A stretch of DNA of 64,000 bases, taken from a virus. The position numbers were made by a program, and so were the translations under genes. Positions 24,841 to 55,237 of this stretch are shown one piece after another. The DNA lies in the IMG/VR virus record IMGVR_UViG_3300045135_000745, positions 1 through 64,000 of that record; one strand, 5' to 3'. The notes under the pieces are model-generated. The model had not been told where the DNA came from, made no database searches, and was given only the letters and a program-made list of their open reading frames with translations. Each line of letters begins with the position of its first letter. Position 1 is the first letter of the stretch.

Positions 24841-26580
24841 TTATACCGAACCCACGACTTCTTCGAAGTCCACACCCGTTCTAACTGCGACAAAGTTAAG
24901 TGTCACGAAGTTAATTGAACGTGCGGGCTTGATGAAGATCGAGCATACGAATTCGTTTCTGTCTATAACTGCCGGGGTGTTGTTTGTTTCATCTGCAACA
25001 ACACGGAAGTCGGTGATACCACGTCTACCTTGGATCTCTCTGAGGAAAGGTTCGACAATGTTCGTAAACTCTGCACGAGTGAATTCATCGTTGAATTCGA
25101 AGAGTACGTTACGAGCCGCAATGGCAATTGCTCTTTCAAGAACCAGGAACAGACGGCGTACGTTAATACGATCGAATGCTGAAGGTCTTGCCATGTGAGT
25201 TTTATCACCGTAGAGCAAGATACCTTGTCCAGGAATATTTGCGATTGGGTTTACGCCATTCCTATAGAGAAGATCTCTTTCTGTTTTATTTGGGGAATAA
25301 AGTGTTTTAGTTACACCCAAATATACACCACGTCTTTGACCCGCTGGGGAATACCAAGCTGCAGTGTTATTGTCTGACGCTGCCATAATACCTGCAGTTG
25401 AAGATGCTGCTGGGATGCTAATGTACTGGTCGTTGTACTTATCATATACTCTCAGGTAGTTGTTATCCACGAAGAGATAAGAAGAGTAAGTGAAAGTTTT
25501 AGCAGTAGTAATAACATCATTATTAACATCATTCGATGTTACGACGTCTGAACGTGCAGGTGAAGCTACAACAACACAGTCTTTACGAGTACCTTGAGCA
25601 ATAGAAACTAGGTCGTTAACGACTGTGGTTTGAGCTGCTCTAGAACCCATACCTGGAGCGATTAAGAAATCGACTTGGATATTATCCTTGTCTTCGAATC
25701 TATCGAAACCAGTTGCGTATTCACCTTCATCAAATGCTGCGGAGTTAGCACCGCCTGCTAATGATAAGGTCTTAACTGCTGGTGTTGCAAGTTGATAATC
25801 TTTAGCATCTTCTACATCAGTACCAACGTTTGTATTCCAGTCAGAGTCTGTAAGATCACCAAAACCGGCAAGCCAAACGTAACGTGATCTGTTATTGATA
25901 ACGTCCACGATATAGTTAGATGTGCCATCTGCGGATTTAGCATCTGATGCTACCGAAACGAATGGGAATGATTCAAGAATCGTCCCCTTTGTCCCGGTAA
26001 ACGCGCCATCTTGGTCAATAACCACAACGTGAGCTTCATCGTTTGATGCGCCTCGGTCTGATGCGTACGTAGATGTAGTAGGCGCGCCGTCGAAGTTATC
26101 TTCGTATGTCCAACCTGTAAATGCTGGATCGTCTGCGCTGTCAACGGCTGTAAGCCATTGTACTTGTAGCGAGTTACCCAGTGTACCTGGATATTTAGCG
26201 ATGAATGTGTGTTCATCGGAATCCAATGCAGCTTGCTGGAAATCAAAAGATTCTTGCTTTTTGACTCTTGCTGCTGAAGCCGCTCTAGCGTCGTACCCGT
26301 TAAGACTTTCGCCCACGCCTTGGGTAGCTTCTCTAACCACGTAGAGTGAATTTGCATATCTTAAGAAATATGCTGCTGAGTGGAAGTCGATAGAATTTGT
26401 TTTGCTTGGGCTACCGAAAGTAGATACAAGACCCGCTTCGTCAGATACTAAAATTGGTTCATCGACTGGACCCCAATTAAAGTTACCTACGAAAGCGCCG
26501 GTTGTTGAACCAACATTAGGAACAACACCAGTAAGGTCAATCTCTTTGACGGTAATTGCCGGAGATTCTGATACTGCCAT
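24841..26580 (-). CDS. gp18: tail sheath protein
   Basis: SP...VKEIDLT, F.WGP, FDRINVRRLF, FEFNDEFTR, IKPARSINF. Confidence 0.97.
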   Translation of the reverse strand: MAVSESPAITVKEIDLTGVVPNVGSTTGAFVGNFNWGPVDEPILVSDEAGLVSTFGSPSKTNSIDFHSAAYFLRYANSLYVVREATQGVGESLNGYDARAASAARVKKQESFDFQQAALDSDEHTFIAKYPGTLGNSLQVQWLTAVDSADDPAFTGWTYEDNFDGAPTTSTYASDRGASNDEAHVVVIDQDGAFTGTKGTILESFPFVSVASDAKSADGTSNYIVDVINNRSRYVWLAGFGDLTDSDWNTNVGTDVEDAKDYQLATPAVKTLSLAGGANSAAFDEGEYATGFDRFEDKDNIQVDFLIAPGMGSRAAQTTVVNDLVSIAQGTRKDCVVVASPARSDVVTSNDVNNDVITTAKTFTYSSYLFVDNNYLRVYDKYNDQYISIPAASSTAGIMAASDNNTAAWYSPAGQRRGVYLGVTKTLYSPNKTERDLLYRNGVNPIANIPGQGILLYGDKTHMARPSAFDRINVRRLFLVLERAIAIAARNVLFEFNDEFTRAEFTNIVEPFLREIQGRRGITDFRVVADETNNTPAVIDRNEFVCSIFIKPARSINFVTLNFVAVRTGVDFEEVVGSV

Positions 26581-26641
26581 GACTCTTTCCCTTTGAGTTT
26601 GAATGATATGTTTTTCATGATACGATTATATTCATTACTTC

Positions 26642-26649
26642 TATTTATA
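26642..26649 (-). promoter_or_regulatory. late promoter TATAAATA for gp18
   Basis: Exact consensus. Confidence 0.7.
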
Positions 26650-26661
26650 AGAAATTATATT

Positions 26662-28278
26662 TTAGAAATGCTGATGGTCGTAGTCGATAGCCCAAGGCTT
26701 ACCTCGGTCTTCTTCTTTCTGTAATTCATTAATTGCATCAGATCCATCATCAATGAATCCGAATGGTACCATATCATTTTCAATCTGTGCCATCTTATCC
26801 TTGAACATCATTTCTTTTAAATTAATATCTGTCATATCACCAAACATTTCAGTAGTAGCAAAGTAACCAAACATAACTAAATTCATTATCAAGTCGTCAT
26901 GGTTACCATCTGACGCTTCATAGGATTGTCCTTTGGCAATAAAAGTAGAACACTCTAAGATGGTATTAGTATCGTGTATTTGAAGTTTTTCATTCTCAAT
27001 AATATCTTTAATGCCAGAACACCCCAGACGCTTTACCTTACGGGTCATTTCAATACCTATACCGTCCGATTTAAGTGCAGATGATACATGCATATTTTCA
27101 TATTCTAATTCGTGATATAAGCCCCGGGTAACTAGCACACCCTGATCATTAGATTCAACAATCACATACGCTTGATTGTAAGAAGTTGCATACTTATAAA
27201 TAATATCAGGGAAGAGTATTGGAGAGATAGAATTACATCGATAAACCGCGACTTGTTCAAACGGTCTACACGTTACATCGATCACGTTAAAAGTAGAATA
27301 ATCCTGTCCTCTTCCCTTACTTACATCTACACATACAATATATTCGTGGTCTTTCTGGGTCTCTTTATAGACTAGTAAGTGTCCGCCTTCAAGGATCTTA
27401 ATAGGCTCGATTGATTTCATTCTCATAAGAGCTTCTGCGCCAATTAAGGTATCCCCAGTACCGAAAAACGTATTGCCAAATTCCTGGTCGAATTGAAGCT
27501 GTGATGTGTTGTTAATCGTTTCTATTTTCCAAGCTTCATCGCGACCGGGAACATCCCACCAATCCACTCTGAATGGTTTATAAGCATTGGTCCCCTGTAA
27601 AGCACCTTGCCAGATAGTATAGAATTGGTTACCGATACCATTGGCTGTTGAAGTAATAATAACCTTTGTATCTTTACCAGACGAAACAACGGGATAGGTT
27701 GATGTATAGAACTCTGTAGCATTTTCAACGAATGCAAATTCGTCGAGATATAGCAGGTTAACCGATTGGCCACGAATAGAGCTACCAGATGTAGCAGCAG
27801 CAAAAATCTTAGAGTTATTACTAAACTCAATCGAACCTTTGTTGAGTGCCTTTGTTCCTGGCTGTAAGAAAAACGGTAAGTTTTCTAGCATCAAGGTAAT
27901 ACGTGAAAGCATTTCCCTCGCAGTTGCGCCTTTGTTTGCTAGAATAGCAATATTCTTTTCCGAATGGAAAATTGCATACCAAAGCAGATAAGCGACAGAG
28001 GAAATAGATTTACCGGACTGGCGACAAGCGAGAACGATAGAGAATCGATTATCATTGAAGTGCTGGAACATCTTCTCTTGATAAGGATATAGCTTAAAGT
28101 TAACTAGACCTTTATCAAGCGAGATAATCTTACAGTAAGTAACTGCAAAATATGCAGGATCGTTCATACACTTTTGGTATTCAAGGATAGTTTCTTGACT
28201 CCATCCTTGAACGATGCCATCACGTTTCACATTCGGATTACCTAAGTAACCCTCATTACCATTTACAATATTATTCAT
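26662..28278 (-). CDS. gp17: terminase large subunit
   Basis: YLGNPN, RQSGKS, LYLDEFAF, DVSKGRGQDYS, HDDL. Confidence 0.97.
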   Translation of the reverse strand: MNNIVNGNEGYLGNPNVKRDGIVQGWSQETILEYQKCMNDPAYFAVTYCKIISLDKGLVNFKLYPYQEKMFQHFNDNRFSIVLACRQSGKSISSVAYLLWYAIFHSEKNIAILANKGATAREMLSRITLMLENLPFFLQPGTKALNKGSIEFSNNSKIFAAATSGSSIRGQSVNLLYLDEFAFVENATEFYTSTYPVVSSGKDTKVIITSTANGIGNQFYTIWQGALQGTNAYKPFRVDWWDVPGRDEAWKIETINNTSQLQFDQEFGNTFFGTGDTLIGAEALMRMKSIEPIKILEGGHLLVYKETQKDHEYIVCVDVSKGRGQDYSTFNVIDVTCRPFEQVAVYRCNSISPILFPDIIYKYATSYNQAYVIVESNDQGVLVTRGLYHELEYENMHVSSALKSDGIGIEMTRKVKRLGCSGIKDIIENEKLQIHDTNTILECSTFIAKGQSYEASDGNHDDLIMNLVMFGYFATTEMFGDMTDINLKEMMFKDKMAQIENDMVPFGFIDDGSDAINELQKEEDRGKPWAIDYDHQHF

Positions 28279-28642
28279 CTTTTAATCGTGGTGTAATATC
28301 CACCACGTTATTCTCCACCTGTTTAGCATTTGCATCTTGAAGCATACGCTGTAAATCTGTTGTTGAGCCAATATAAACATTATTAGTAGTTTGCCCGGCG
28401 GGTAACTGGGGTTGTTCCTTAACGTTAATATCTTTATGCTTCTTATTCAGATCCATAAGCTTATCGTTAACATCGGCGACGTTTTTAATAAGCCCAGACA
28501 ATACTTCGAATGCACGCGGGTGCTCGCTTTCGCGTGCGACCTCAATCATATCTTCTAGAGCATTTCGACCTTTGTTAATTAGATCGAATAAAGTGTCTCT
28601 CGAGTATTCATAGTCATTTTTAATTCTATCAGAATCAGACAT
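28271..28642 (-). CDS. gp16: terminase small subunit
   Basis: DYEYSR..L, ESEHPRAFEV, TTNNVYIGSTTDLQ; start trimmed to MSDSDR. Confidence 0.93.
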   Translation of the reverse strand: MSDSDRIKNDYEYSRDTLFDLINKGRNALEDMIEVARESEHPRAFEVLSGLIKNVADVNDKLMDLNKKHKDINVKEQPQLPAGQTTNNVYIGSTTDLQRMLQDANAKQVENNVVDITPRLKDE

Positions 28643-29489
28643 AATTTGGCCATCCAGATTTATCACTATCACCATCCTCCATACTATATATTGACGTGGT
28701 AAATCCATAGTCGCTATCGGGTGATGCATCTAATGGATTAGGTTCTACCACAATTCTAGATGAAGGGCTATAAAGGGCAAAGGCCCCATCAGAGTCAATC
28801 GTATCGTGCAGTAAAGTACCATCCGAATCCCGGGCAGCATTCGACGTATAAAGATCCACAATAGATTTTCTAATAATCGCCGTTTCAGTAATCGGACCGT
28901 AGAAGTTAGCCGTCATGGAAAAATCTAAAACGTATTGTATAATACGCCTTTGATCCAAAGACCCCTCATATGCATCCGAGTAACTAATGCCATTAAGTGT
29001 AATGGGAACATCTTCTTTAATATCACTATAATCGGCAAAAGGCTTAATAGTCAAAGTATATTGTGGTGCAAAGTTCGGAAGGATCTGTTCTATAATCTGC
29101 AGAGCATCGTCCTGGGTCTTTGCATATACGTTTAACTGGAACCCAATAATATATGGTGTAAATGTGTAAATTTTATTACGAGTATTACCACTACCTTTGT
29201 TAAGGTTGTTAACTTTTTGCAACTGTCGTTGCGAGTCATACTGATAGGAAGTAATTTCAAAAGACATACGAGGTAACTTAATAGCTACTTTTGTGTCATT
29301 CTGTAGATCTGGATTCTCACGAATACGATCTAAGAAGCTAGTGCTTGGTGCATACGACAGCGGTACACGAGCTTGACTAATAACTTTGTTTGTATTATCT
29401 GTGCGAACTACGTAGATGTTATTAAAGAGTGAGCCAAACATAGCCACGCTTTTGCGGATTCTTTCGTGATAAAAATGGCTGCCTAACAT
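28635..29489 (-). CDS. gp15: tail sheath stabiliser/terminator
   Basis: HFYH..IRK....FG.LFNNI, VPLSYAP, LPRMSFE, QIIEQILP.F. Confidence 0.93.
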   Translation of the reverse strand: MLGSHFYHERIRKSVAMFGSLFNNIYVVRTDNTNKVISQARVPLSYAPSTSFLDRIRENPDLQNDTKVAIKLPRMSFEITSYQYDSQRQLQKVNNLNKGSGNTRNKIYTFTPYIIGFQLNVYAKTQDDALQIIEQILPNFAPQYTLTIKPFADYSDIKEDVPITLNGISYSDAYEGSLDQRRIIQYVLDFSMTANFYGPITETAIIRKSIVDLYTSNAARDSDGTLLHDTIDSDGAFALYSPSSRIVVEPNPLDASPDSDYGFTTSIYSMEDGDSDKSGWPNYV

Positions 29490-30406
29490 TACTGTGGATC
29501 TCCAAACGGATTGCTTTCACTGAAGTCTAAGAAACCCATGTCTGTGTCAGTGGTATCAAAGAAGTCATTCTTTTCGTTTTCTGCTAATTGATTCACTTCA
29601 GACACCGCCGTGGCAGAAGCGATAGAAAGAAGAGGGTCTACAATAGATCCTGATGAATCTTTATCTTCAGTACCGATGATCTGTCTACCGGTTACAAACG
29701 TATGATAGTTACCGTCATCTGCACCCACATGAATAAGGTGCAAGATATTATCTGAATCAGAGAACGCTGCAACTTCGCCTGATACGATTGTTCCAGTTGA
29801 CAGTGTCTGATTGACAGTCTCACCGATCGACCATCCAAACGAAGCGCTATCAAGTGTGACGAGATACTTGTAAGCATAGTCACGTTCAACCGTATCAATA
29901 GCATCTACACCGGTATCAAGATTTTCACCGCTGTACTCAAAGAGTTCACAACGTAACTTATAAGTAGGTAGGTTACTGAGCTGATAGAAAGGTTGTTCGT
30001 GCTCTACAGCCATAATCTGGAACATAGAATTTGATAGTGGCAGATAAATTACGTCGCCCTCAAGCGGTCTAATTGCCTGAATCTCGTTGTCGTACCTTGC
30101 CACAGTTTGTGACCAGCGCTTGCGAGCTACAATGAAAGTAGCTTGGTCACGAATCTCTACCCCAAACTTAGTGAAAAGATCTCCTTCACCGTCAAAACCT
30201 TCCGTGTTCTCTATGTACATCTCTACTTTATAAGAAGAGTTGAAGCTTGATTGGATATCTTCACCGAGGATTTTATCTTCAGTTACTAAATCTCTTGGCA
30301 GATAATAAACGTCTTGACCATAGATCTTAAGAGATTCTATGATAATATCTTCGTATAGATTTTGTTCTGATTTAACCTTTTGGCTAAAGTAGTGGTTAGT
30401 TGCCAT
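29489..30406 (-). CDS. gp14: neck protein
   Basis: EQNLYEDIIIES...G.DVYYLPR, KFGVEIRD, PFYQL, DFSESNPFG. Confidence 0.93.
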   Translation of the reverse strand: MATNHYFSQKVKSEQNLYEDIIIESLKIYGQDVYYLPRDLVTEDKILGEDIQSSFNSSYKVEMYIENTEGFDGEGDLFTKFGVEIRDQATFIVARKRWSQTVARYDNEIQAIRPLEGDVIYLPLSNSMFQIMAVEHEQPFYQLSNLPTYKLRCELFEYSGENLDTGVDAIDTVERDYAYKYLVTLDSASFGWSIGETVNQTLSTGTIVSGEVAAFSDSDNILHLIHVGADDGNYHTFVTGRQIIGTEDKDSSGSIVDPLLSIASATAVSEVNQLAENEKNDFFDTTDTDMGFLDFSESNPFGDPQ

Positions 30407-30410
30407 TTTC

Positions 30411-31166
30411 TTATCCTACGAAGAAGTCTGCGGGCATCTCAAAGTCCATGCGAATCTTTTCTCTTAGACGCTCAATCTCTTGTAGTGCGTCTTCGAAGAT
30501 CTGTCTACCGTTAAGTGTCACACCACCAGGCATCTGCATTCCTTCAAACTTAATTAGGTTTGCACCCCATTGGTGTTTAATTAAGGCGGTGGTATATTCT
30601 TTTAACCACATATCATTCCATACTTTAGAGTGTGCACTAGAATCTACAGTCTTAAATGCTTCATATACAATATAATCTCCCGCCTCTACGTCTTTATCAT
30701 TAAAGTCGCCATGAAGATATAATCGGTTCATTTTACGGGAATAGGTAGTCTGTGGTTCTCCATTAAGCTTCATATCCAGAAGTGAAAGGTATTGGTTAAG
30801 CTGCTCATAGTACGCCAAGTCACCCGAAAAGTTTTGCATATCTGCAATATCATTTAACATCATCTGATATTTAATATCAAAGAAGTTAAATGAAGTATTA
30901 AAACTCGATGAAATACGGAACATCCTACTTACGTAGATCACATCATTTGGAACAGTGACATATTCATTCGATACGTCACTGTCACCTACAAGCTGTGATA
31001 CATATGTTCTATATGTTGCATCACTATGAAACTCTTGCCAGTACTGTAGGGCTTCATCGACACGGTCCTCTAGTTGATCAATATCCACATTGATCTCGAT
31101 AACCGGATCACCAAGTCTTCTTAAACAGTAATCAATGAGACCTTGTCTGCTAGATGGATTCGCCAT
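30411..31166 (-). CDS. gp13: neck protein
   Basis: YCLRRLG.PVIEINV, WLKEY.TALIK.QWG.NL.KF, PGGVTLNG. Confidence 0.94.
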   Translation of the reverse strand: MANPSSRQGLIDYCLRRLGDPVIEINVDIDQLEDRVDEALQYWQEFHSDATYRTYVSQLVGDSDVSNEYVTVPNDVIYVSRMFRISSSFNTSFNFFDIKYQMMLNDIADMQNFSGDLAYYEQLNQYLSLLDMKLNGEPQTTYSRKMNRLYLHGDFNDKDVEAGDYIVYEAFKTVDSSAHSKVWNDMWLKEYTTALIKHQWGANLIKFEGMQMPGGVTLNGRQIFEDALQEIERLREKIRMDFEMPADFFVG

Positions 31167-31187
31167 GGTTTGTTTCCTATTTTATAC

Positions 31188-31201
31188 TATTTATATTTAT
31201 A
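31188..31201 (-). promoter_or_regulatory. two overlapping late promoters TATAAATA for gp13
   Basis: TATTTATA at 31188-31195 and 31194-31201. Confidence 0.65.
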
Positions 31202-31652: not shown

Positions 31653-31667
31653 TTGTGTCCCTATCGA

Positions 31668-32788: not shown

Positions 32789-32798
32789 ATTCTACCCC

Positions 32799-34256: not shown

Positions 34257-34266
34257 TTTCTATACC

Positions 34267-34920
34267 TTATGTTGTCGGGCTGTACATAGTTTTTAAAGCT
34301 GTACCACTAGAATTATAAATCGTTAAAGTTTGAACCCCAGCAAAATTAGAACTAGTAATATCATTATAAGTTGCAACATTAAATGTTGTAAATGCTATAA
34401 CTTGTAAGTCATCTCCAGCAGTTGCGCCACTATTTAAAACAATACTAGTTCCGTTTGATGCTGTATAATCATCCCCAGGTCTTAAAACAATACCGTTTAA
34501 AGAAACTATAATACTACCAACGGTATAACTTAACGTAGCGGCATTATCATCAGCCCCGGTAAAAGTAGTTTGTCCCCCGGTAGCAGTATATTCATATATT
34601 GTTAATGTCTGACTTGCTGCGTCAGCAAATGATAAATTACCAGCACCGTCAGTTTTTATAACTTGACCGTTAGAACCATCTGAGGTGGGTAATGTAAATG
34701 TATTAACGAATGAGGTAAGATTTGCATCATATGCTTGAATAGTAGACCCAATCTTATTATCAATAAGATCTGAATCTACAAAATTCTTAATTATGTTTGA
34801 GGAATTTTTATAGTAAAGTCTACCATCAGCATAGTTGAGGGCAACTTCGCCATATTCTAGATCACCAGTTCCTGGTGCATTACTAGATACAGATGATTTT
34901 TTAAGTAGGACTTTTGCCAT
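34267..34920 (-). CDS. fibre/virion structural protein
   Basis: LKKSSV...P...DL.YGEVALNYADG.LYYK N-terminus, YTATGGQTTF module. Confidence 0.75.
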   Translation of the reverse strand: MAKVLLKKSSVSSNAPGTGDLEYGEVALNYADGRLYYKNSSNIIKNFVDSDLIDNKIGSTIQAYDANLTSFVNTFTLPTSDGSNGQVIKTDGAGNLSFADAASQTLTIYEYTATGGQTTFTGADDNAATLSYTVGSIIVSLNGIVLRPGDDYTASNGTSIVLNSGATAGDDLQVIAFTTFNVATYNDITSSNFAGVQTLTIYNSSGTALKTMYSPTT

Positions 34921-37233: not shown

Positions 37234-37241
37234 TATTTATA
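37234..37241 (-). promoter_or_regulatory. late promoter TATAAATA
   Basis: Exact consensus upstream of the fibre operon. Confidence 0.7.
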
Positions 37242-43781: not shown

Positions 43782-43783
43782 TA

Positions 43784-45374: not shown

Positions 45375-45992
45375 TTAACTTCCTGCACCGTACAATGTTT
45401 TAAGAGCTGTTCCGCTACTGTTATATATTACTAGCGCTACCTCGTCTTTTAAGTTTGCGCGTGCAACGCCATCATTAGCAATTGATACCGCACCACCTGA
45501 AACTGTAAAATTAGTAGAGCTAAAGCTAGCAATACCTTTATTCGCAGTTGTTGCATCTTCTCCAGATATTACACCCGATGTAATATCTATACCTTCACCG
45601 GCACTAAAGTGTGCTCTTACCTCAGAAGCGCTTGGACCAGTATATGTAATTATCCCAGTTGCTGAACTATATGATAATGATCCATCACCTCCAGCATCTG
45701 TTACACTGATATGTGCTCTTACCTCAGAAGCGCTTGGACCAGTATATGTAATTATCCCAGTTGCTGAACTATATGATAATGATCCATCACCTCCAGCATC
45801 TGTTACTGAGATTTTACTTCTAACATCCAAATCGGAATCGATTAATGCATATACAGAATTAATAGCGCCCACAATATCAGAATCTACTGTGGTATTTAAT
45901 GCTGTTAAATCTCCAACCTCTAATGATAGTTGATTAAACTTATTAACCATTTCATTAAAGTTATCGGAGATATTAAGATGTTGTTTCGCCAT
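45375..45992 (-). CDS. short fibre/fibritin-like structural protein
   Basis: N-terminal helical segment (VGDL..LNT...IVGAIN), 34-aa tandem repeat. Confidence 0.65.
   Translation of the reverse strand: MAKQHLNISDNFNEMVNKFNQLSLEVGDLTALNTTVDSDIVGAINSVYALIDSDLDVRSKISVTDAGGDGSLSYSSATGIITYTGPSASEVRAHISVTDAGGDGSLSYSSATGIITYTGPSASEVRAHFSAGEGIDITSGVISGEDATTANKGIASFSSTNFTVSGGAVSIANDGVARANLKDEVALVIYNSSGTALKTLYGAGS
45610..45806. repeat. tandem duplication: two identical 95-bp copies, period 102 bp
   Basis: 45610-45704 is identical to 45712-45806. Confidence 0.92.
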
Positions 45993-46195
45993 TATAGTTT
46001 CTCTATGATCTGGGTTAGCATGGATTTGATATCATTAACATCTTGTTTCAACTGTTCAATTTCCTGCTTCTGCCTGTTACGATTCTCTTTTGCTTTCCTA
46101 GCCATATTAATTTCAGAGGTATTTATATTAATAATTGCACCGGTTTTCGGATCTCTTCCAAATCCCGGCGCGTTATCAGCTTTTAGTATTTTCAT
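45992..46195 (-). CDS. small conserved protein following VrlC-like genes
   Basis: RDPKTGAIIN + coiled coil ..DVNDIKSML. Confidence 0.75.
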   Translation of the reverse strand: MKILKADNAPGFGRDPKTGAIININTSEINMARKAKENRNRQKQEIEQLKQDVNDIKSMLTQIIEKL

Positions 46196-49100
46196 TATAC
46201 TGCCAATGCGATTGTTCTAATATCCTTAAACACTGGCACCTTCGCTTGATTTTCTGAAACCATAACAATTTTTATTTGTAATTGATTGAAAGCATCCAGT
46301 GTACCAGTATTACCTCCAATCAGATATTCATATTCTCTGAATACTTCCGGATTTTCATCACTGATTAGTCCTGACGTAGAAGTAATTGCTGTCCATGAAA
46401 GGTCGGAGATATTATCATCACCGGAAGCTACTCTATAATACACGTCGAATGAAGCTGCATTAGGCTTATTAGCAGTAATGAATAACTTCATACCAACAGC
46501 ATCTTGCGCTAGAGTAATAACTTTACTTATATGCTTAGCAACTGATGAACCACCCTTCGGATCTGTTTCTGCTACGTAGTTAATTGGTACGTTAAATCCT
46601 GCAGCAGGTGAAGCTGCCGGCTTATCAATAATATTATTAATAGCAAGAACCGAAGCTCTTTGCATATCAATAACTGGTGAAACTTTTTTATCTGTTGTCT
46701 GAAGACCTATTTTCAGATTAAAGCTTTTTGCGCCGCTGAGATATGTAGTTTCATTATTACCATTTGCGATCATCTGAGGAGCATCGAATGCAATATTTTT
46801 ACCAATAGTCATAGGCGTATAAGTTGAAGCTTGCTGATAAGCAGTTTCTGTACCAGCAATCGATTGTGCCGTAGTGGTTTTAATCGATGCAGTAATAGAT
46901 GTTTCAGTAGGTCTTAAAGTTGCAAGACTGATATTAGCAATATCCATCAAAATGTTTTGGTCTGCTAAGATAGCTGATCCGCCACCAATTTCTGCAGAAG
47001 TAGCATCAGAATCTGCTTCAAATTGATAACCAGTTGCATCTACTACTGTAATAGTTCTAGCGCCATTAATGGAAGAAGCACTAATGCCAGCCATGTCTGT
47101 TGCGCCTGAGATATTAACCGTATCGCCAACTGCAAATCCATGATTAGGTTGATACACCGAGATTGTTGCATCAGCAGAATCAACTGATAATGGATCTTCA
47201 GTTAATAGTTTCTGTGGAACAGAAGCGTTGTTAAGAACAACCTCACCGTAACTGGTATTGAATGCTGCAGTGTAGATATGTATTTTCATATCTTCCCACT
47301 GAGTAGCTGTCCAAGTTGAGTTATTCTGAGATTTAAACAAGGAGCCTAAGAATGGCTGCTTAACAACTTTCTTATCTGTTGTACCTAATACATAATCACC
47401 AACTTTAGAAATAAAGACTCTATACGTCGGAACAGAAGAAATAAGAACGAAGCAGTATTCCTTATTAGGATTCAAATAAACCGGTTCTTCGAATTCGAAT
47501 GTAGTTGCTACGCTCGCATCATCCGATACTGTAATTTCAGATGGGAATTTAAATACTGTTGAACCTCCGATAACCTCAGAAGTCGGATACCCGTTTTCAA
47601 TAGCACGAATTTGACCCCAAACTGGAGCAGTGCCAGTATCTTTTTCTGCAAAATACACATCAACTTTTGTAGCAAATACGCCATTAGTATTAGAAATAAA
47701 GAATGATTGTGCTAATGGATCCGATCTATTGTGGGCCAGTAATCCATTCGCAAAATATGTATTGTTACCATCTAAGATAAAGTTATAGACTGTCTGTTCT
47801 GGCTCATCAGAGAATACCTCTAATGATTCAACCAGCATCCAAGAACCGTCTTCCATAAGGATTTCATCACCAACCTGAAGATCTTTAACATCTAAGAAAC
47901 CCATTTCAGGGAACTGATACGCAAAAGTTTCAGCAGAGTATGATCTCCAGCCATTCTTGGTAAAGAGCGGGTGTTCGGGGGTCATGAATGGACCATTACC
48001 ATTAATACCAATGAAATCTCTTCCATCTAATGCTGGATGGTCAAATTCAAGAACAGTATTGATAGCGCCATCTTGACCCAGAAGTTTTTCACCGATCTCA
48101 ACATCTTCAATCTTTTTCTTAGTGCCATCAGCCATAGTGATAAGAGTCCCGGCAATAAAGCAAGAACGTTCAATAGGAGGCGCTGGCGGTCTTGGTGGTG
48201 GCGGGGGCGGAGTAACCACTGGCGGCGGTGGCGGATTAGTTGTAGTTCCAATAACCCTACTAGACGAACTACTAGTAGTTCTTTGGCTACTAACAACCTC
48301 CAATACTCTAGTGCTTAAAACATCTCTTTGTCTTGTCTGTAGCGTACCAGCAGCAGTAAAAACTTGTCTTCCATAGGAGGTAGAAAATTCGATATTATTA
48401 AGATCAGTTATGTCAATTAGTTCAAAGTCTCTGCTACCAGTTCTAAATCTAAAGTTAGCTGTCGACGGAATAAAGAATGAACCTTCTATATTGCCATTAG
48501 CATCAGCAATTAAAGATGAAGAACCTTCTGGATGGCCAAGTGCAGTATTTTCAGTATTACCGAATGTAGTCGTATCATCAGAAGCACGAGTAAAGGTTTC
48601 TGCCCTACACCAATCTGATACATCAATACCGTCAAAGAATGGGAATACTTCAGTATCAGGTCTAAACCCTTGGCCTCTGAAATATACTTTTCTCGATCTC
48701 ATGAATGGGATAGAAACTCCTTGGACTAATCTATCACCGACGATCTCTGTGATAGTAGTTTCACCTACAATTCTATTATTACCGGTGGTGGTAGAAGACC
48801 ATGAGTTTCGAATAGTTTCTGTACCACCAGTACCGAAATCTCCAGCAGTATTATTAACAGAAGTGCTAGAACCACCGCTAGAACTTAATGTGATGGTGTT
48901 TGTAACCGACCCAACTTGCAATTGATCTAGCGGAGTACCTCCCCAATTCCACTGATGGGCATTCCAAAGGTTTGCCCCGGAAGTATCTAATTGAGTTTGA
49001 TTTACAATCGCATCTGGTTGATACTCTTGTTCAATCCAGTTATCGCTCGCTGGTGAAAGTGCAATATTACCGTCGAATCTAATAGTCCAATATGGAAGAA

Positions 49101-51840
49101 CATTTTCTGTGCCACTGGCCTGCGATTGATTGATATATGACTCGTGGGCATATTTAAGGTAAATATTATCACCCTTTTTAATCACGCCAGAGTTCTCGCT
49201 ATTATCAGAATCATAAAGAAGATCTATAGCATCTGTATTACCACGCGGACGCATAGCTTTATTTTCTGGATCGATTGCAGCAGCGTAATCTAGATCATCT
49301 GTTGCAGAAAAGAAGTGATTAGAAAAGTTATCTACGAAAAATCCAGATTTGGTTCGATTATTACCATCAGAATCCAATACCGCTAAATTAGCCGTATCAA
49401 GCTCGAGCAAACTTAATGAGGTGACTTCTTCTAAAGAATTAAGTCTTTTTTCTAACAAACCGATATCAGCCATAGTATAATGCTTATGTTCGATTTGTTT
49501 CGAAACTAGATCTTTATTATCTAGTACATAAGGATTAAACTGAATTCTATATAATTCAAGCGAGTTATCTGGATGCGGAACGAATTCAGGCGTTAAAGAT
49601 TCATCGCCATTTATAACAAAAAGATTTGCTTTAGTATCAATTACTAGCTTAGAATACACCTTATTATAATAAGAAATATCAGCCTGAATAGCATCATTTG
49701 GCTGAGGAAGCTCGTGAACGATAGCTCCTGATCCGAAAGTACCAGAAGAATTTACTACCGGTCTAAAGTCAAGTACGTTTCTAAGAGGGATTGTAGATCC
49801 TACGGCATTAATATGGGATGGGATATCAGTATAATCTACTTGACCGGTATATGAGTTAACTGAGAAGAAATCACCAGAAACCCCATGTGAGAAATAATCG
49901 TATTTAACAACAACATCGTAGGTTGGAACAGATTGGCCTGACTTAAGAACAAGACGACCTAAACCATAATAGTTATCTCTCTGTCCATTATCGAGAATAA
50001 ATCTAGATCTCACACTATTACCGCTGACGCTATCTCTTGTTACCGATGTAAATGAATATACGTCTGGCTTAGATAAATTAGCGAAGATTGTGCCATTACC
50101 ATCAGAATCCCAATCACCTGTACCGATAGTGTCTGTCTGGTCTTCATTTAAGGTTTTAGAACGGATTGAACCATTAGCTTTATTGACGTATGCCATAACT
50201 TCAATACTAGAAGCACCGCCAAGTCCTGAAATAGTAGCGTTTGTAGTACCAACGCCAGTAATAGTAGCACCAGTTACTACCGCACCACTATCGGCAGAAA
50301 TAACCCAGTCGTTTGTATTTGCAAACGTTTCGCCGGATGCTGAAAGGGTTAATGTTGCACTACCTGCAGTAACTGACGCCGTGAATCGTCTTTGCGTTGA
50401 AAGAGAGATATCAGTCATATTAGACGGACGAATTCTAGGAAGTGCGAATAATAACGAATTAGTTTTAGGATCCTTTAGAACCGCTTGACCTAATTCTAAA
50501 ACCAAGTTCATAAAGTCTGTACCGCTTGTGCCGATACTTCTTACGCTTCTAAAGTTCTGCCCAGAGTTCATAGAAATTTGAAACAGGTGAAGTCTATGGT
50601 AACCTGAGTTATCTTCATCAACTGCTCTAACACGAGCCGTACCAATAGTACTTCCCCCATAATCTACAGCATTACGAAGATTGACGGTTGAGAAGTCATT
50701 AATATTCGGAAGGCCTTCACTGGTTGAACCATCTACAAGAACATAGTTACCTAAAGTAAATGCAGCTACTTCGTTATTAACTGTTGTGGTGGTTCTAGGT
50801 TTATCAACAGTAATAGTTCTAGAACTATGGGTTTCTACTCTATAACCATCAATATAAGCTAAACCTGGTTGTACGGAAATATCAATTTTGCTAGTATCAT
50901 CGGTATTGTCAGAGAAGTTTAATTTAAAGGGTTTTACAATATAATCACCAGACTCTTCAGAAGTTCTGGTTGCCAGCATTTCTGCGATTATATTATAGTT
51001 TTCTTCTTGGGCCGGTTTTTTAACCTCTAAAATATCATCACCATTAAGTACCCCAACGAAAACAAAATTATCCGCTGAGTCTATCGTGGAATCTAAAGTC
51101 AATGTTAAATTGATTTTAAATCTATCAGCGCCGGGAGAAGAGGTGTTAGGTAATGGACCTGAGTTATCGTATAATGTGTTATCGTCGTTTGCGGTAACAA
51201 TAGATTCGGTTACTTTAAATCCAAAATTATCTGTATTAGTATCTGAGTTTTCGTATTTCTTAGCAAGGATAGTTTGTTTTGGGGAAAATACGAATCTACC
51301 ATCTACGTAGTATACCCCTTCATTATTGGTAAGGAATACGCCTTCCCCTAAAGCTGGGTTTGCTGTAGTATTGGTAGTCTGTACTGTTAAAGTAACAGCA
51401 CCATTTGTAATATTTTCACCTGGAGTAAATCTTAAATTAGATCCATTTGCGTTAATATATCTTACGTAAATTGTTCCAGGGTCAGATGCTGTGGCTTCCT
51501 CAACGTGAGTAACAACAGCGGTCACGCCACTTGTAGAACCGGTAAACGTGGTATTTAAAATAGTAGATGTATCAGCCGGGAGAGCATTAATTGTCTGATT
51601 TAATTTTGCAAATTGGGAACCTGATGCAATAAATCCACCAGACTGAACAATAGCACCTTCTTTAAAGATGTTATCCCCGAACCGAGTAATCTCTTTTTGA
51701 ATAATAGTTTGTAGCTGTGTAAGCTCTCGTGCTTGAACCGCTCTACCATTATTAAATAAGATTCTATGAAACCCAGCACTGTCAGAGAAATCATCTCTGT
51801 ATGTTTCTAGGAAAGTATTCTGAATTACTTGATCTACCAT
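46195..51840 (-). CDS. large virion structural protein, VrlC/DUF4815-like, carrying an internal Hint domain
   Basis: Y.DDF...FHRILF...AVQARELTQLQT, YTMADIG.LEKR, KSGFFVDNF, DPLAQSF. Confidence 0.88.
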   Translation of the reverse strand: MVDQVIQNTFLETYRDDFSDSAGFHRILFNNGRAVQARELTQLQTIIQKEITRFGDNIFKEGAIVQSGGFIASGSQFAKLNQTINALPADTSTILNTTFTGSTSGVTAVVTHVEEATASDPGTIYVRYINANGSNLRFTPGENITNGAVTLTVQTTNTTANPALGEGVFLTNNEGVYYVDGRFVFSPKQTILAKKYENSDTNTDNFGFKVTESIVTANDDNTLYDNSGPLPNTSSPGADRFKINLTLTLDSTIDSADNFVFVGVLNGDDILEVKKPAQEENYNIIAEMLATRTSEESGDYIVKPFKLNFSDNTDDTSKIDISVQPGLAYIDGYRVETHSSRTITVDKPRTTTTVNNEVAAFTLGNYVLVDGSTSEGLPNINDFSTVNLRNAVDYGGSTIGTARVRAVDEDNSGYHRLHLFQISMNSGQNFRSVRSIGTSGTDFMNLVLELGQAVLKDPKTNSLLFALPRIRPSNMTDISLSTQRRFTASVTAGSATLTLSASGETFANTNDWVISADSGAVVTGATITGVGTTNATISGLGGASSIEVMAYVNKANGSIRSKTLNEDQTDTIGTGDWDSDGNGTIFANLSKPDVYSFTSVTRDSVSGNSVRSRFILDNGQRDNYYGLGRLVLKSGQSVPTYDVVVKYDYFSHGVSGDFFSVNSYTGQVDYTDIPSHINAVGSTIPLRNVLDFRPVVNSSGTFGSGAIVHELPQPNDAIQADISYYNKVYSKLVIDTKANLFVINGDESLTPEFVPHPDNSLELYRIQFNPYVLDNKDLVSKQIEHKHYTMADIGLLEKRLNSLEEVTSLSLLELDTANLAVLDSDGNNRTKSGFFVDNFSNHFFSATDDLDYAAAIDPENKAMRPRGNTDAIDLLYDSDNSENSGVIKKGDNIYLKYAHESYINQSQASGTENVLPYWTIRFDGNIALSPASDNWIEQEYQPDAIVNQTQLDTSGANLWNAHQWNWGGTPLDQLQVGSVTNTITLSSSGGSSTSVNNTAGDFGTGGTETIRNSWSSTTTGNNRIVGETTITEIVGDRLVQGVSIPFMRSRKVYFRGQGFRPDTEVFPFFDGIDVSDWCRAETFTRASDDTTTFGNTENTALGHPEGSSSLIADANGNIEGSFFIPSTANFRFRTGSRDFELIDITDLNNIEFSTSYGRQVFTAAGTLQTRQRDVLSTRVLEVVSSQRTTSSSSSRVIGTTTNPPPPPVVTPPPPPPRPPAPPIERSCFIAGTLITMADGTKKKIEDVEIGEKLLGQDGAINTVLEFDHPALDGRDFIGINGNGPFMTPEHPLFTKNGWRSYSAETFAYQFPEMGFLDVKDLQVGDEILMEDGSWMLVESLEVFSDEPEQTVYNFILDGNNTYFANGLLAHNRSDPLAQSFFISNTNGVFATKVDVYFAEKDTGTAPVWGQIRAIENGYPTSEVIGGSTVFKFPSEITVSDDASVATTFEFEEPVYLNPNKEYCFVLISSVPTYRVFISKVGDYVLGTTDKKVVKQPFLGSLFKSQNNSTWTATQWEDMKIHIYTAAFNTSYGEVVLNNASVPQKLLTEDPLSVDSADATISVYQPNHGFAVGDTVNISGATDMAGISASSINGARTITVVDATGYQFEADSDATSAEIGGGSAILADQNILMDIANISLATLRPTETSITASIKTTTAQSIAGTETAYQQASTYTPMTIGKNIAFDAPQMIANGNNETTYLSGAKSFNLKIGLQTTDKKVSPVIDMQRASVLAINNIIDKPAASPAAGFNVPINYVAETDPKGGSSVAKHISKVITLAQDAVGMKLFITANKPNAASFDVYYRVASGDDNISDLSWTAITSTSGLISDENPEVFREYEYLIGGNTGTLDAFNQLQIKIVMVSENQAKVPVFKDIRTIALAV
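47728..48162 (-). other. Hint (intein-like/BIL-type) autoprocessing domain, 145 aa (C1227-N1371)
   Basis: CFIAGTLITMADG..KKIED, TPEHP (block B), VYNF..DGNNTYFANGLLAHN; +1 residue is Arg. Confidence 0.88.
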
Positions 51841-51856
51841 TCGTTAATCCGTTTTC

Positions 51857-53200
51857 TTATAATTGTATGATAACTTTCAGATCTTCAGTTTGTGCTGATG
51901 ATCTTTCAATTGCGGCTCTGTTATCGATGTAAAATATTTCACCTTTGAACTTATTTATATCACCAGAATTGGCTGTAGTTCCGATAACACCCGAACCAGA
52001 GCCATTAGTTTCTGAAACTGCTTCACCAGCTTGGAACGCTGTGAATCCGGTATCAACTGTTTGGTGATAATAAATGGTATCCGAATCAAATTTATCCACA
52101 TAAGCTAATGCACCGGATGTACCACCTTCAATAATTTTATCAGCGGTAAATCCAGTAGCTACAGAAGAAAGAACCATATAATTTAGAGCTGAACCGGTTT
52201 CGGTTGTAAGCTTGGCATCAGCTGAGTCCAGAGGATTACGAATAATACCAACTTGTCTAAAGTCTTGACCGATAATAAAGTCTTCATTTTCTGCACCGGA
52301 TGGCTTAGAGTTAAACATAATTGCTGTTGACTTAAGATCTAAAATAGGATTAGCGCCAAAGCCGGAAGGAGTAGAAAGATTTACTCTTGCCGCCGCGCCT
52401 GTGCCACCACCGCCAGTGAATACCACATTTGCTTGATTGTAATCATGACCTGGTCGATATAGTAAACTAGCAGCAGAATCTTTCATTTCTACCTTAACAA
52501 CTGCACCGCCGCTAATAGTGGCAATTGCTTGAGCGCTGTCGCCGTCACCGACAATAGAAACAGATGGGGTAGAAGTATAACCTGTACCACCAGAAGTTAC
52601 TGTAATATTTGCGATTGTTCCAAATACTGCTGCATTCTGGATACCGTATTGTTCTTGATCAACAGCAGGATCAGTTGGTCCAGCCGAATCAACTAAACGT
52701 ACCGGCATATAGTTTGCTGAAAGGTAATTATTTGCAAGTGAAGCACCGACTGTATAAAGAAATTTCCAAACATAACCATCGGCAGTTTTAAATGGAGTGG
52801 TAAGAACACCAGATGGCTTAACTGTAGACTGTACGGCTGCACCGGTAGAATTCTTACCTTGTTCCAGACAAATATAAACTTGGTTTTCATCCGTAATAAC
52901 ATAATAGGCATTAGTAGGATAAGCCACTTGATTGTTATTCCATCCACTATAAATTGTACCAGAAGTCCAGTTATATCTTGGTACCACGTATGAAACATCT
53001 TCAGCTCTTTTTACAGATTGTAAATTTAATCTAAAGTTTCTTTCTTCAAGAGCACTATTAACAGGATTTGGCGCGGCATCCGCTGAATCCCATTGTTGAG
53101 ATCTACCGATACCAATATAATAATGTTGAGCAGAATCTGCAACATCATTTAGGATTTCTTGAATAAATCTTCTTTTGAAGCTATCTGTGATAATTGCCAT
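51857..53200 (-). CDS. gp8: baseplate wedge subunit
   Basis: VVPRYNW.SG, YYVIT....VY.CL, DGYVWKFLY, YIDNR..I.RS..Q.ED.K. Confidence 0.88.
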   Translation of the reverse strand: MAIITDSFKRRFIQEILNDVADSAQHYYIGIGRSQQWDSADAAPNPVNSALEERNFRLNLQSVKRAEDVSYVVPRYNWTSGTIYSGWNNNQVAYPTNAYYVITDENQVYICLEQGKNSTGAAVQSTVKPSGVLTTPFKTADGYVWKFLYTVGASLANNYLSANYMPVRLVDSAGPTDPAVDQEQYGIQNAAVFGTIANITVTSGGTGYTSTPSVSIVGDGDSAQAIATISGGAVVKVEMKDSAASLLYRPGHDYNQANVVFTGGGGTGAAARVNLSTPSGFGANPILDLKSTAIMFNSKPSGAENEDFIIGQDFRQVGIIRNPLDSADAKLTTETGSALNYMVLSSVATGFTADKIIEGGTSGALAYVDKFDSDTIYYHQTVDTGFTAFQAGEAVSETNGSGSGVIGTTANSGDINKFKGEIFYIDNRAAIERSSAQTEDLKVIIQL

Positions 53201-53212
53201 ATTTTTATCCTA

Positions 53213-54214
53213 TTATGCTACTGTTACTTCGCCTTGGTTACCAATCAGATACCAGTTAGTGCCGTCCCAAACGACCTGACATCCATCATATTGTGCTAAG
53301 GCAAACGTAGTACCCTGAGCGAAATTTGCGGGAGTAACAGTTGCCGTACCCGCTCCTTTATTTGTAAAAATCTTGTATTCGCCAACTACCGTACCATTAG
53401 CAAGAGAAACTGCTAAAGCTGATCCGCTGTTACAGATTATATATGTTGCTGAAGTTGATGCTGCACCCGATGTAGTAATAGTTGAAGAAGTGTAAGCTGC
53501 TTTTGCAATCTCAACTGAACCAGTACCTTTACCAGCTAATTTCATTGTTACATTAGTATCAGTACCAGATGCAGTAATAGTTGGTTTACCGGATGCCGCC
53601 GCATTTGCTAAACTAATTTCATTAGCGGCGGAAGCTGTTGCAGTAACTTTAATTAATTCAGCACCATTTGTATCATTAATTGATGTTGTAATACGTGGGG
53701 CTGTAATAGCAGGAGTAGTAAGGGTTTTATTCGTTAATGTCGCAGCATGGTCAGCAAATACAATAGTATCACTATCTAAAAGATCTGGGAAGTTAATAAT
53801 TAAATCTGTACCAGAATCAACTACACCTTCATAATGGAAGTGATAATAACCAGTTCCTTCAACGCCGTGTAATCTTAAATCACCATCAATTTTTGTATCA
53901 TGTAAATGCTTTTTATAAAGACTCTGTTCTGCAGTCGTCGTGACGACCTCACCGGATGAATCTGGGAAATTAATGGTATTATCTTTTGTAGGATTAGTAA
54001 CGGTAATCACTGTTTCGAAGTCATCAGCTGATGTGCCTTCAAATACAATATTATTATTTGTAAGGGTAATACCAGTAGAAAGAACATCGCTGTCGCCACC
54101 AAGCTTGCGATAGATCTCTACGAAATTTTCATTGATCTTCTGTCCAGCACTACGTAGTGTATCGCCAGTTCCATCGTTAGCTGTCGTACCAGTACTAATG
54201 TTCTGTCTTGTCAT
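53213..54214 (-). CDS. baseplate/fibre connector protein with gp9/gp10-type N-terminus
   Basis: G..ANDGTGDTLR.AG.KINENF.EIY. Confidence 0.75.
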   Translation of the reverse strand: MTRQNISTGTTANDGTGDTLRSAGQKINENFVEIYRKLGGDSDVLSTGITLTNNNIVFEGTSADDFETVITVTNPTKDNTINFPDSSGEVVTTTAEQSLYKKHLHDTKIDGDLRLHGVEGTGYYHFHYEGVVDSGTDLIINFPDLLDSDTIVFADHAATLTNKTLTTPAITAPRITTSINDTNGAELIKVTATASAANEISLANAAASGKPTITASGTDTNVTMKLAGKGTGSVEIAKAAYTSSTITTSGAASTSATYIICNSGSALAVSLANGTVVGEYKIFTNKGAGTATVTPANFAQGTTFALAQYDGCQVVWDGTNWYLIGNQGEVTVA

Positions 54215-54238
54215 GATTAATTCCTGTTGAGTTTAATC

Positions 54239-54246
54239 TATTTATA
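54239..54246 (-). promoter_or_regulatory. late promoter TATAAATA
   Basis: Exact consensus; nearest intergenic late promoter recognised upstream of VrlC and the modification cluster. Confidence 0.7.
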
Positions 54247-54253
54247 TAAAAAG

Positions 54254-55237
54254 TTAGGGCAAATCTAAATACTGAAAGGTATTATTAGTAGAATCCAAGT
54301 AGTCGAAATTGGACTGATCCATCGTTTCGACTGAGTTAGAGAAGTCGACTGATACGATAATACCATCAGAATCCTGATCGAATCTTGAGGAGTTTTCATC
54401 TTGGAATTCAATGAAGCTATTATACTGATCATCAAACTGTGCCAGTGTGACAGATCCACCAAGATCTGATATAGATTTATATGGATCAATTCTTTCAGAA
54501 TAAAGATCTGAATCGGCATCATCGGCAATAATAAGTGATAGAGGTTCGAATGTCAACGAAGCAATGGATGCGGTATTTTCGAACGAAACCACGCCAGCAT
54601 TTGAATCCAAAATTGAAATCGGCATATCACCGATACCAAGATTAACTGTACCTTCTACAACAATATCGCCAGCAAGATAAAAACCTGACGGATGAACGAA
54701 TCTTTTAAATAGGGTTTCCCATTTAGCTAAAGAAACCCCGGATCGAATCAAAATAGAATGAATCTGATATCTTTTATCATCCTGAATATATTTCAATGAG
54801 TCTGGGCCAAGTCTAGATTCATTAACAATAAACATATTGTTTTTAGGATATACAATATCTACTTCTTCGTCGAAAAATCCTCGGAAGAATAGTTTTGCAG
54901 AATTAGCGCTGCCTTTTTCTCTATAAAAATTGGCAAATAGTTTGGCAATCAATCTTGGGTTAATATTAAAGTCAGTTGAGTTTAATCCGAGGCCGATCTC
55001 ATCAAAGATCTTATCTAACTGGGAAAGTAAAGTAGTATTTAGATCTCTGGCTTGATATAATGAATTTAGTAAGTATGTAAACCCTTGGTCATCTTTTTCC
55101 ATATAGTCATAATATGATTCCAGAAATTCTACAAGATTTGGATACTCCGTAGGAAAGTGTTCGGGTAAAACTTCTCTTACCTTACTCGTATGGAAATTAA
55201 CTGGAACGCGATTTAAATGACTTATATTATGAGACAT
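54254..55237 (-). CDS. gp7: baseplate wedge initiator (short gp7-like)
   Basis: LP..F..EYP..V.FL..YY.Y, FYR.KGS, FVHPSGF. Confidence 0.72.
   Translation of the reverse strand: MSHNISHLNRVPVNFHTSKVREVLPEHFPTEYPNLVEFLESYYDYMEKDDQGFTYLLNSLYQARDLNTTLLSQLDKIFDEIGLGLNSTDFNINPRLIAKLFANFYREKGSANSAKLFFRGFFDEEVDIVYPKNNMFIVNESRLGPDSLKYIQDDKRYQIHSILIRSGVSLAKWETLFKRFVHPSGFYLAGDIVVEGTVNLGIGDMPISILDSNAGVVSFENTASIASLTFEPLSLIIADDADSDLYSERIDPYKSISDLGGSVTLAQFDDQYNSFIEFQDENSSRFDQDSDGIIVSVDFSNSVETMDQSNFDYLDSTNNTFQYLDLP

Follow-up and report, generated by a model that had tools for sequence, protein, structure and literature searches.

The DNA analysed here (the window) is a stretch of 64,000 nucleotides, positions 1-64,000 of the virus record IMGVR_UViG_3300045135_000745, which comes from a 79.9-kb parent contig that is 48% complete and belongs to an uncultured marine T4-like phage lineage. 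Between positions 24841 and 55237 it carries genes for tail, neck, fibre and baseplate proteins, and across these proteins two tripeptides, DSD (Asp-Ser-Asp) and DSA (Asp-Ser-Ala), occur far more often than composition predicts. We refer to this element, D-S-[D/A] or DS[DA], as the tag.

Tag density in the virion proteins of the window

The motif was counted directly in the open reading frames (ORFs) called from the window, and protein identities were taken from PHROG profile matches. Twelve minus-strand virion ORFs, together 5,474 amino acids (aa) long, contain 22 DSD and 13 DSA. They are listed below with their sites and, where a family was pooled across related phages, with the observed against the expected number of sites; the last line gives the adjoining gene for gp6.

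24841..26580, minus strand: gp18-like tail sheath, 579 aa (phrog_23, 4.6e-116); 3 sites, DSD120, DSA147 and DSD245
28635..29489, minus strand: gp15-like tail sheath stabilizer, 284 aa (phrog_227, 1.9e-76 over residues 1-221); 4 sites, DSD at 221, 232, 258 and 274; pooled 10 vs 0.9
29489..30406, minus strand: gp14-like head closure/neck protein, 305 aa (phrog_460, 1.1e-78); 2 sites, DSA186 and DSD217
30411..31166, minus strand: gp13-like head-tail adaptor, 251 aa (phrog_211, 5.2e-41); 1 site, DSD62
34267..34920, minus strand: fibre/baseplate-like protein, ORF34267, 217 aa (phrog_32294/38058); 1 site, DSD49
34994..36577, minus strand: virion protein p527, ORF34994 (phrog_15769, 9e-51); 2 sites, DSD364 and DSA401; pooled 82 vs 15
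36852..37208, minus strand: p118, ORF36852, small fibre-associated (phrog_1084/3304); 2 sites, DSD47 and DSA95; pooled 36 vs 3.4
45375..45992, minus strand: p205, ORF45375, Ser-rich fibre-like; 2 sites, DSD37 and DSD52; pooled 85 vs 14.4
46195..51840, minus strand: VrlC-like giant virion protein, 1881 aa (phrog_358); 7 sites, DSA20, DSA254, DSD578, DSD823, DSD877, DSA1554 and DSD1610; pooled 533 vs 114
51857..53200, minus strand: gp8 baseplate wedge, 447 aa (phrog_438, 5.5e-79); 7 sites, DSA at 22, 38, 171, 221, 241 and 325, and DSD372; pooled 422 vs 54
53213..54214, minus strand: gp9/gp10-like baseplate-fibre connector, 333 aa (phrog_677); 2 sites, DSD41 and DSD147; pooled 119 vs 17.6
54254..55237, minus strand: gp7-like baseplate wedge protein, 327 aa (phrog_17744); 2 sites, DSD242 and DSD289; pooled 251 vs 27.7
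55237..57072, minus strand: gp6 inner baseplate wedge, 611 aa (phrog_219, 1.1e-138); 0 sites in the window copy

Statistics were computed on all 30 ORFs of positions 24841-55237, which avoids a post hoc choice of proteins. Per-protein shuffles predicted 4.2 DSD (z 9.1) and 4.5 DSA (z 4.0), and none of 500 shuffles reached 22 DSD or the observed number of DSA. Among the 8000 possible tripeptides, DSD ranked first in over-representation, with a Poisson p of 1.25e-9 (about 1e-5 after Bonferroni correction); DSA ranked fifth (p 5.6e-4) and fails multiple-test correction if taken alone. The DS dipeptide occurred at expectation (58 vs 57) and SD was likewise not enriched, so the signal resides in the residue after DS, which was D or A in 35 of the 58 dipeptides. 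Serine codons at the sites were mixed (24 TCN and 11 AGY) and the Asp codons GAT and GAC appeared at background frequencies, which points to selection at the level of the protein sequence, not of a DNA word, and rules out a DNA-level motif or duplication.

Outside the virion genes the tag was scarce. The cassette of enzyme genes at 37316-44422, described below, has no DSD or DSA, and the early/replication block has three sites: one in the conserved 'SGGADSA' of a QueC-like PP-loop protein and the others in the ORFs at 14588-15190 and 17648-18106. The original prediction for this region, made from hand counts in the translations, had given about 22 DSD and about 13 DSA, none in the cassette and about three in the replication block. 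Our recount reproduced its totals and per-protein figures exactly, the excess persisted against composition-shuffled proteins, and the mixed serine codons agree with its view that DNA duplication is not the source.

Within the tag-bearing proteins, several sites lie outside the segments that match known families. All three sheath sites are N-terminal to residues 321-561, the segment that matches other sheath families, and the four DSD of the gp15-like protein all fall in a C-terminal extension past the family core (1-221).

Other proteins of the window lack the tag altogether. No site was found in its major capsid protein, scaffold, portal, tube, terminase, gp6, gp25 or gp5-like hub proteins, nor in a 798-aa protein, a 309-aa protein (p309) and one fibre (32799-34256). 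For gp6, 55 orthologs together held a single site against 25.9 expected. Of the 89 DS dipeptides in these orthologs, a D or A comes next in only 1, and DS itself stands at half its expectation (89 vs 184), in a gene that adjoins the 9x-enriched gene for the gp7-like protein. This pattern is active avoidance of the tag in an inner baseplate protein. The pooled gp5-like hub family is similarly poor in sites (3 vs 11 expected). Placement of the tag on outer proteins together with its removal from buried ones indicates that something reads it.

Conservation, strictness and structural setting

The nearest named phage is C48C1, whose gp8 is 35% identical to that of the window; cyanophages and pelagiphages fall below 30%. 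Within the clade the tag was found in approximately 170 related viral loci, and all of the roughly 95 loci recovered by a gp8 profile search, at 46-78% gp8 identity, were enriched. Pooling 692 non-identical clade proteins gave 808 DSD against 143 expected and 536 DSA against 155, and the pooled families of gp8, gp7-like, gp9/10-like, VrlC, p118, p205, p527, gp15 and gp14 proteins were enriched 4.7- to 11-fold; the pooled p-values are inflated by shared ancestry, and the direction and size of the effect are clear. Relatives at 55-90% identity keep most sites. Both gp9/gp10-like sites are kept in 4 of 4 aligned orthologs and both gp7-like sites in 9 of 9.

A near-complete 151-kb relative (G001) independently repeats the division into tagged outer and untagged inner proteins. 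It carries sites in the sheath (where two of the window's three are shared), gp15, outer baseplate, VrlC and fibres, and none were found in its hub, gp6, tube, tape measure or replication genes. The major capsid protein of G001 is present only as a 236-aa N-terminal ORF (L104:10764-11474, which is G001 110764-111474) and, unlike that of the window, carries three DS[DA]; its shortness could stem from a frameshift, from an intron or from a mistake in the assembly.

Beyond the clade the excess disappears. No DS[DA] excess was seen in Syn9 or in pelagiphage Mosig, the C48C1 orthologs of gp8 and VrlC have zero sites, and in G019, a 140-kb contig that is 78% complete, the 50-kb virion region holds 14 sites where 13.4 are expected. 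We therefore rejected ancestral structural loops of T4-like proteins as the origin of the tag, and the expectation that sites should be absent at aligned positions in outside orthologs was borne out for Syn9, Mosig and the C48C1 gp8 and VrlC proteins. No alternative sequon was evident in the tag-free lineages, whose top tripeptides were accounted for by fibre repeats and redundancy. The sole outgroup with DS[DA] clusters in its fibres is C48C1, where tandem 88-aa repeats hold 15 of them and a fibre N terminus without repeats holds 5. A gp7-like protein of this phage (L021:15236-19942) has approximately eight such repeats, each containing '...L[VI]TDSDI...NS...' and '...LIDSA[DE]AT...'.

The pooled clade proteins also define how strict the motif is. 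Position 1 accepts only D (DSD 5.6x, vs ESD 0.45x and NSD 0.34x) and position 2 only S (DTD 0.71x, DTA 0.94x), while position 3 is D (5.6x) or A (3.5x) and, weakly, C (2.1x) or S (1.6x). The remaining DSx tripeptides are depleted to about 0.3-0.9x, including those with I (0.67), L (0.60), V (0.44), M (0.48) and T (0.62). No wider consensus surrounds the tripeptide in these proteins, apart from a Gly at +3, seen at about 20% of sites, and a hydrophobic tendency at -1.

Individual sites turn over within this strict form. DSD and DSA exchange at aligned positions of VrlC (254, 823, 877 and 1610) and at position 95 of p118, which is DSA here and DSD in a relative. Across eleven orthologs, 30 sites were counted in the window and 28 in G001, of which just 13 are at common positions, and the unshared ones fall in poorly conserved segments. 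Similarly, 38 gp8 orthologs average 4.4 sites against 0.56 expected, spread over about 12 regions of which none is universal, and the sites often slide by one or two residues. In an AlphaFold2 model of gp8 (predicted local distance difference test, pLDDT, 86), which matches the T4 gp8 structure 1n7z (E 4e-10), all seven tag serines are in coil or turn, typically right after the end of a strand or helix. This agrees with the predicted location of the sites in loops, and is supportive rather than strong since Ser and Asp are themselves biased toward coil (about 63%).

The enrichment, specificity, loop location, turnover with DSD/DSA exchange, avoidance in buried proteins and phyletic pattern, with the tag absent from outgroups, bear out the earlier idea that a short recognition-like motif was acquired independently in unrelated outer virion proteins. 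We propose, with moderate confidence, that D-S-[D/A] is an acceptor sequon for phage-encoded modification of the virion exterior. The main rival is a structural or metal-binding turn to which nothing is attached, D-S-D(-G) being a near-ideal type I beta-turn or strand-end cap that perhaps binds seawater Ca2+ or Mg2+ to stiffen the tail surface. Such a turn fits the gp8-model sites at strand and helix ends and in hairpin turns, the frequent Gly that follows, the VrlC segment 'DWDSDGNG', which resembles a DxDxDG calcium loop, and the periodic h-DSD-h...NS context in C48C1 and in the fibre-like proteins of the window. However, the third Asp is freely replaced at the same positions by Ala, which is unfit as a carboxylate metal ligand, and other tripeptides that form turns just as well show no enrichment (NSD 0.34x, DSN 0.95x, DPD 1.28x, DTD 0.71x). 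The orthologous loops of the same folds in Syn9, Mosig, G019 and C48C1 lack the tag. A merely favoured turn also does not predict the 26-fold purging of gp6. We therefore regard the turn as an unlikely explanation.

Candidate enzymes in the late cassette and beyond it

Between the genes for p118 and p205, at 37.3-44.4 kb, lies the cassette of putative enzymes, which the original prediction had taken to recognize the motif. Its genes and the promoter match upstream of it are the following.

43134..43781, minus strand: small GT-A fold, retaining-type glycosyltransferase, 215 aa (AlphaFold2 pLDDT 87; DxD motif 'FFDLDV'; no Pfam match)
42536..43159, minus strand: methyltransferase-like protein, 207 aa (29% identity to a Mosig ORF annotated 'putative methyltransferase')
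41667..42539, minus strand: GT8-like glycosyltransferase, 290 aa ('YLDFDVIP'; homologs at 54-69% identity carry PF01501)
40993..41679, minus strand: p228, N-terminal half a diverged paralog of the small glycosyltransferase, including the DxD region
37316..41033, minus strand: radical S-adenosylmethionine (radical SAM) block (Pfam, NF033640)
40233-41033, minus strand: radical SAM protein without auxiliary domain
39824-40261 and 39442-39882, minus strand: two small SPASM-like ORFs
38316-39476, minus strand: full N-terminal-twitch radical SAM protein (NF033640, 308.6 bits vs a cut-off of 170, profile 2-397 of 398)
37316-38329, minus strand: second, partial N-terminal-twitch radical SAM protein (NF033640, 138 bits)
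46120..46127, minus strand: T4-type late promoter consensus TATAAATA (consensus match only)

The model of the small glycosyltransferase matched the GT6 enzyme BoGT6a (4cjb) with a Foldseek probability of 1.00 and an E value of 4e-10, and also UGGT, LARGE1 and GlyE (5gvw); its D84-x-D86 is invariant in 28 sequences. A profile comparison of p228 with this protein (hhalign 88%, E 2.9e-6, 67 columns) suggests that the cassette holds up to three GT-A-type genes. The GT8-like protein of the window had no Pfam match of its own at E<=1, and its 'YLDFDV' and 'NTGIMVA' motifs were read by eye. The methyltransferase-like protein had no Pfam or PDB sequence match and its label is weak. Profile searches of PDB sequences with the small glycosyltransferase, GT8-like, methyltransferase-like and Maf-like (see below) families returned nothing useful.

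The radical SAM genes have an unusual architecture, with the SPASM/twitch part N-terminal to the core in two proteins (NF033640). A third radical SAM protein has no auxiliary domain and is followed by the two small stand-alone SPASM-like ORFs.

The consensus TATAAATA was found 18 times in the window against 7.8 expected. From the match at 46120 the next on the minus strand is at 37234-37241, with none between them, which suggests a single late transcription unit that spans p205, p309 and the entire cassette. The predicted placement of glycosyltransferase and methyltransferase genes in the same late block held for the GT-A fold protein, the GT8-like protein and the methyltransferase-like gene, all in this one apparent unit.

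Several points favor the view that the cassette itself recognizes and glycosylates DS[DA]: two or three GT-A-type transferases sit between tag-bearing virion genes in one apparent late transcription unit, the four non-radical-SAM genes remain within the fibre module of G001, and every tag-bearing contig with adequate coverage has a homolog of the small glycosyltransferase. The cassette does not track the tag, however. The tag-free G019 carries the small glycosyltransferase (45% identity), the GT8-like protein (53%), the methyltransferase-like protein (52%) and p228 (49%). Loci anchored on the small glycosyltransferase were enriched when that protein was at least about 39% identical to the window's, and those at 32-38% identity (VrlC about 33%) showed no enrichment. 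The small glycosyltransferase thus occurs wherever coverage allows, but also in tag-free lineages including G019. The GT8-like family, present in G019 and not found in the tag-bearing G006 (41% complete), was rejected as the tracking enzyme, as was the N-terminal-twitch radical SAM family, which occurs in the non-enriched G019 (and in G024) and is absent from the tag-bearing G018 (77% complete) and from C48C1.

The pelagimyophages offer a further comparison, since they carry cassettes of (mostly) GT8 and radical SAM genes downstream of VrlC among the fibre genes, in a host-recognition cluster, for which host O-antigen modification was proposed and no virion motif was reported (PMC7029224). These cassettes are the same genomic feature as that of the window, and cultured Mosig lacks DS[DA] enrichment. 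Recognition of the tag by the cassette, as put forward in the original prediction, is not supported and quite improbable.

A family outside the window sorts with the tag more closely. Searches with PF01973 (Maf) matched G001 and G002 below threshold; Mosig, Syn9 and C48C1 gave no match. At 51% identity to each other, the two ORFs matched point to a real family, whose members are about 200 aa long and share the conserved motifs 'IGNGDS', 'NCGHMA' and 'MYGFDSIFDFN'. A profile of this family (A8) was found in all tag-bearing contigs that are at least 53% complete, namely G016 (100%), G017, G018, G020 and the seeds G001 and G002, and the family also occurs in the tag-bearing G006; Mosig, Syn9 and G019 gave no match to the profile. 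In a set of 50,697 phage records the Maf-like gene was confined to C48C1, where it lies 1.4 kb from the homolog of the small glycosyltransferase. We tentatively assign this tag-tracking family (A9) to Maf/MptE on its sequence. As the only tested enzyme family that sorts with the tag, it appears the best candidate for the reader, ahead of the cassette. The loci anchored on the Maf-like gene offer no independent test, since all of them belong to this one clade and the Maf-like gene is distant from the virion genes.

In G001 the Maf-like gene closes a second glyco-island (L100:4545-9224, G001 24.5-29.2 kb), also far from the virion genes, in the order GT8-like (weak), sulfotransferase (PF03567), methyltransferase (PF13578), two GT25, GT8-like (weak) and Maf-like. 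In G018, a 135-kb relative, the gene is split into two 117-aa ORFs (G018:C1:100464-101055), which could be due to a frameshift or a sequencing error.

The proposed modification and its relation to known systems

Under the acceptor reading, D-S-[D/A] would be a clade-specific surface tag that acts at the protein level. Selection would favor a high density of it in loops exposed on the outward-facing proteins of the tail, neck, outer baseplate and fibres, and would purge it from buried tail proteins. A phage enzyme made late in infection would modify the tag serine in the host cytoplasm, with O-glycosylation as the most plausible chemistry, and the reader may be the protein of about 200 aa, tentatively Maf/MptE-like, that is encoded outside the window. 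The cassette, with its GT-A, GT8-like, methyltransferase-like and radical SAM genes, would have at most a part in elongating or tailoring the glycan, or may serve another purpose. In its fullest form this would be the first defined phage protein O-glycosylation sequon, in which a miniature Maf-like reader starts a glycan that is tailored by GT-A/GT8/GT25/methyltransferase/sulfotransferase/radical SAM islands and coats the tails of an abundant marine T4-like clade. We put this fuller version forward as a doubtful possibility.

Several points count against the acceptor reading. The tripeptide in the C48C1 fibre belongs to the 88-aa structural repeat, the exposed major capsid protein and the fibre at 32799-34256 have no sites in the window, and the roughly 20% of sites that read DSDG or DSAG include some that resemble DxDxDG calcium loops. 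The Maf-like label is below threshold (PF01973 at 15.2 bits vs a cut-off of 34.6), with four of six members reaching an E value of about 0.02. In the Atlas, PF01973 appears on just 13% of one neighboring cluster; the neighbors of the family's Atlas model are all viral 'hypothetical' proteins. The Maf-like gene was not found in the window's 79.9-kb contig (48% complete), and synteny with G020 weakly suggests that it would lie about 6 kb past the contig end. Moreover, the phyletic match of the Maf-like family amounts to one or two evolutionary events, which other clade-specific genes would fit equally well, and we infer the attachment of anything to the tag, its nature and the enzyme responsible.

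The closest chemical precedent is SdgB of Staphylococcus, a cytoplasmic glycosyltransferase that adds O-linked N-acetylglucosamine to the Ser of a minimal DSD tripeptide, as determined by mass spectrometry (PMC8561734). The Asp-Ser-Asp acceptor of SdgB/SdgA is the main form of the phage tag, and we found no other demonstrated DSD O-glycosylation acceptor in the literature. The staphylococcal acceptors, however, are long tandem (SD)n tracts of low complexity, whereas the phage sites are isolated in loops of folded proteins. SdgB is also a GT-B enzyme with a DUF1975 domain (PF09318), for which no match at E<=1 was found in this genome (G000), in G001 or in the 100%-complete G016, and DSA has no counterpart in that system.

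The Bacteroidota use a general O-glycosylation sequon, D-(S/T)-(A/I/L/V/M/T), on many unrelated proteins (PMC8550257). Like the tag, it has three residues with Asp first, a hydroxyl acceptor second and Ala permitted third, and it marks unrelated proteins. In the phage proteins, however, Thr is unused, Asp is preferred third, and I, L, V, M and T are depleted there (0.44-0.67x). The analogy to this sequon drawn in the original prediction therefore stands for the first Asp and the third Ala and falls for Thr and the aliphatic third residues and T. The Bacteroidota system also acts on exported proteins; phage virions assemble in the cytoplasm.

Phage-encoded glycosylation of virions has some precedent. 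Mycobacteriophage glycosyltransferases reportedly glycosylate virion proteins on Ser/Thr-rich tails at the C termini of the capsid and tail tube proteins and are not known to follow a defined sequon (Freeman et al. 2023). The two systems share phage-encoded glycosyltransferases beside structural genes. They differ in that the capsid and tube of the window have no sites and the tag is a strict tripeptide in internal loops, and glycosylation is putative here.

Maf proteins (PF01973) resemble the proposed reader in being cytoplasmic O-glycosyltransferases that act on Ser/Thr of the exposed surface of self-assembling flagellin before assembly, and the N-terminal 'IGNGDS' of the A9 family resembles the Maf/GT42 motif 'GNGPS'. 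The A9 proteins, at about 200 aa, are far smaller and fall under the Pfam cut-off, and Maf enzymes are not known to have a strict sequon. Literature searches on phage sequons and tail glycosylation gave no earlier description of this motif.

If the acceptor reading is correct, abundant ocean phages decorate their tails by a three-letter code that is legible from sequence, and glycosylated surfaces could be predicted from metagenomes. Such decoration would matter for how stable the phages are, how they adsorb, how they are grazed and how host defences recognize them, and would give the glycosyltransferase islands of marine myophages, so far taken as host O-antigen modifiers, a new reading. The tripeptide and its enzyme of about 200 aa would also form a compact cytoplasmic tagging system for protein engineering. 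Even with nothing attached, outer proteins enriched 8-fold next to an inner protein depleted 26-fold are an unusually clean sign that selection acts on a tripeptide, and this calls for an explanation.

Enrichment and avoidance show that the tag is read, not by what, and this leaves room for a non-glycan modification or for docking: a kinase, an Asp/Asn beta-hydroxylase-like oxygenase (4665-5336) acting on the Asp, a radical SAM maturase, a decoration protein or a host-surface ligand. Radical SAM enzymes mature tripeptide repeats in the His-Xaa-Ser (HXS) defence system (PMC13128918), and a TATAAATA match stands before the hydroxylase-like ORF and a QueC-like ATPase. On the other hand, Asp/Asn hydroxylases are core to all pelagimyophages, including the tag-free Mosig (PMC7029224), the occurrence of the radical SAM genes does not follow that of the tag, and no kinase or decoration candidate was found. 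We consider such alternatives improbable.

The TATAAATA match in question, at 5579-5586, precedes a 78-aa ORF, the Asp/Asn beta-hydroxylase-like protein and the QueC-like PP-loop ATPase (together 4033-5586). The hydroxylase-like ORF at 4665-5336 is Asp_Arg_Hydrox-like (PF05118, 2.5e-9), and both enzymes behind this promoter match would be expected to be expressed late.

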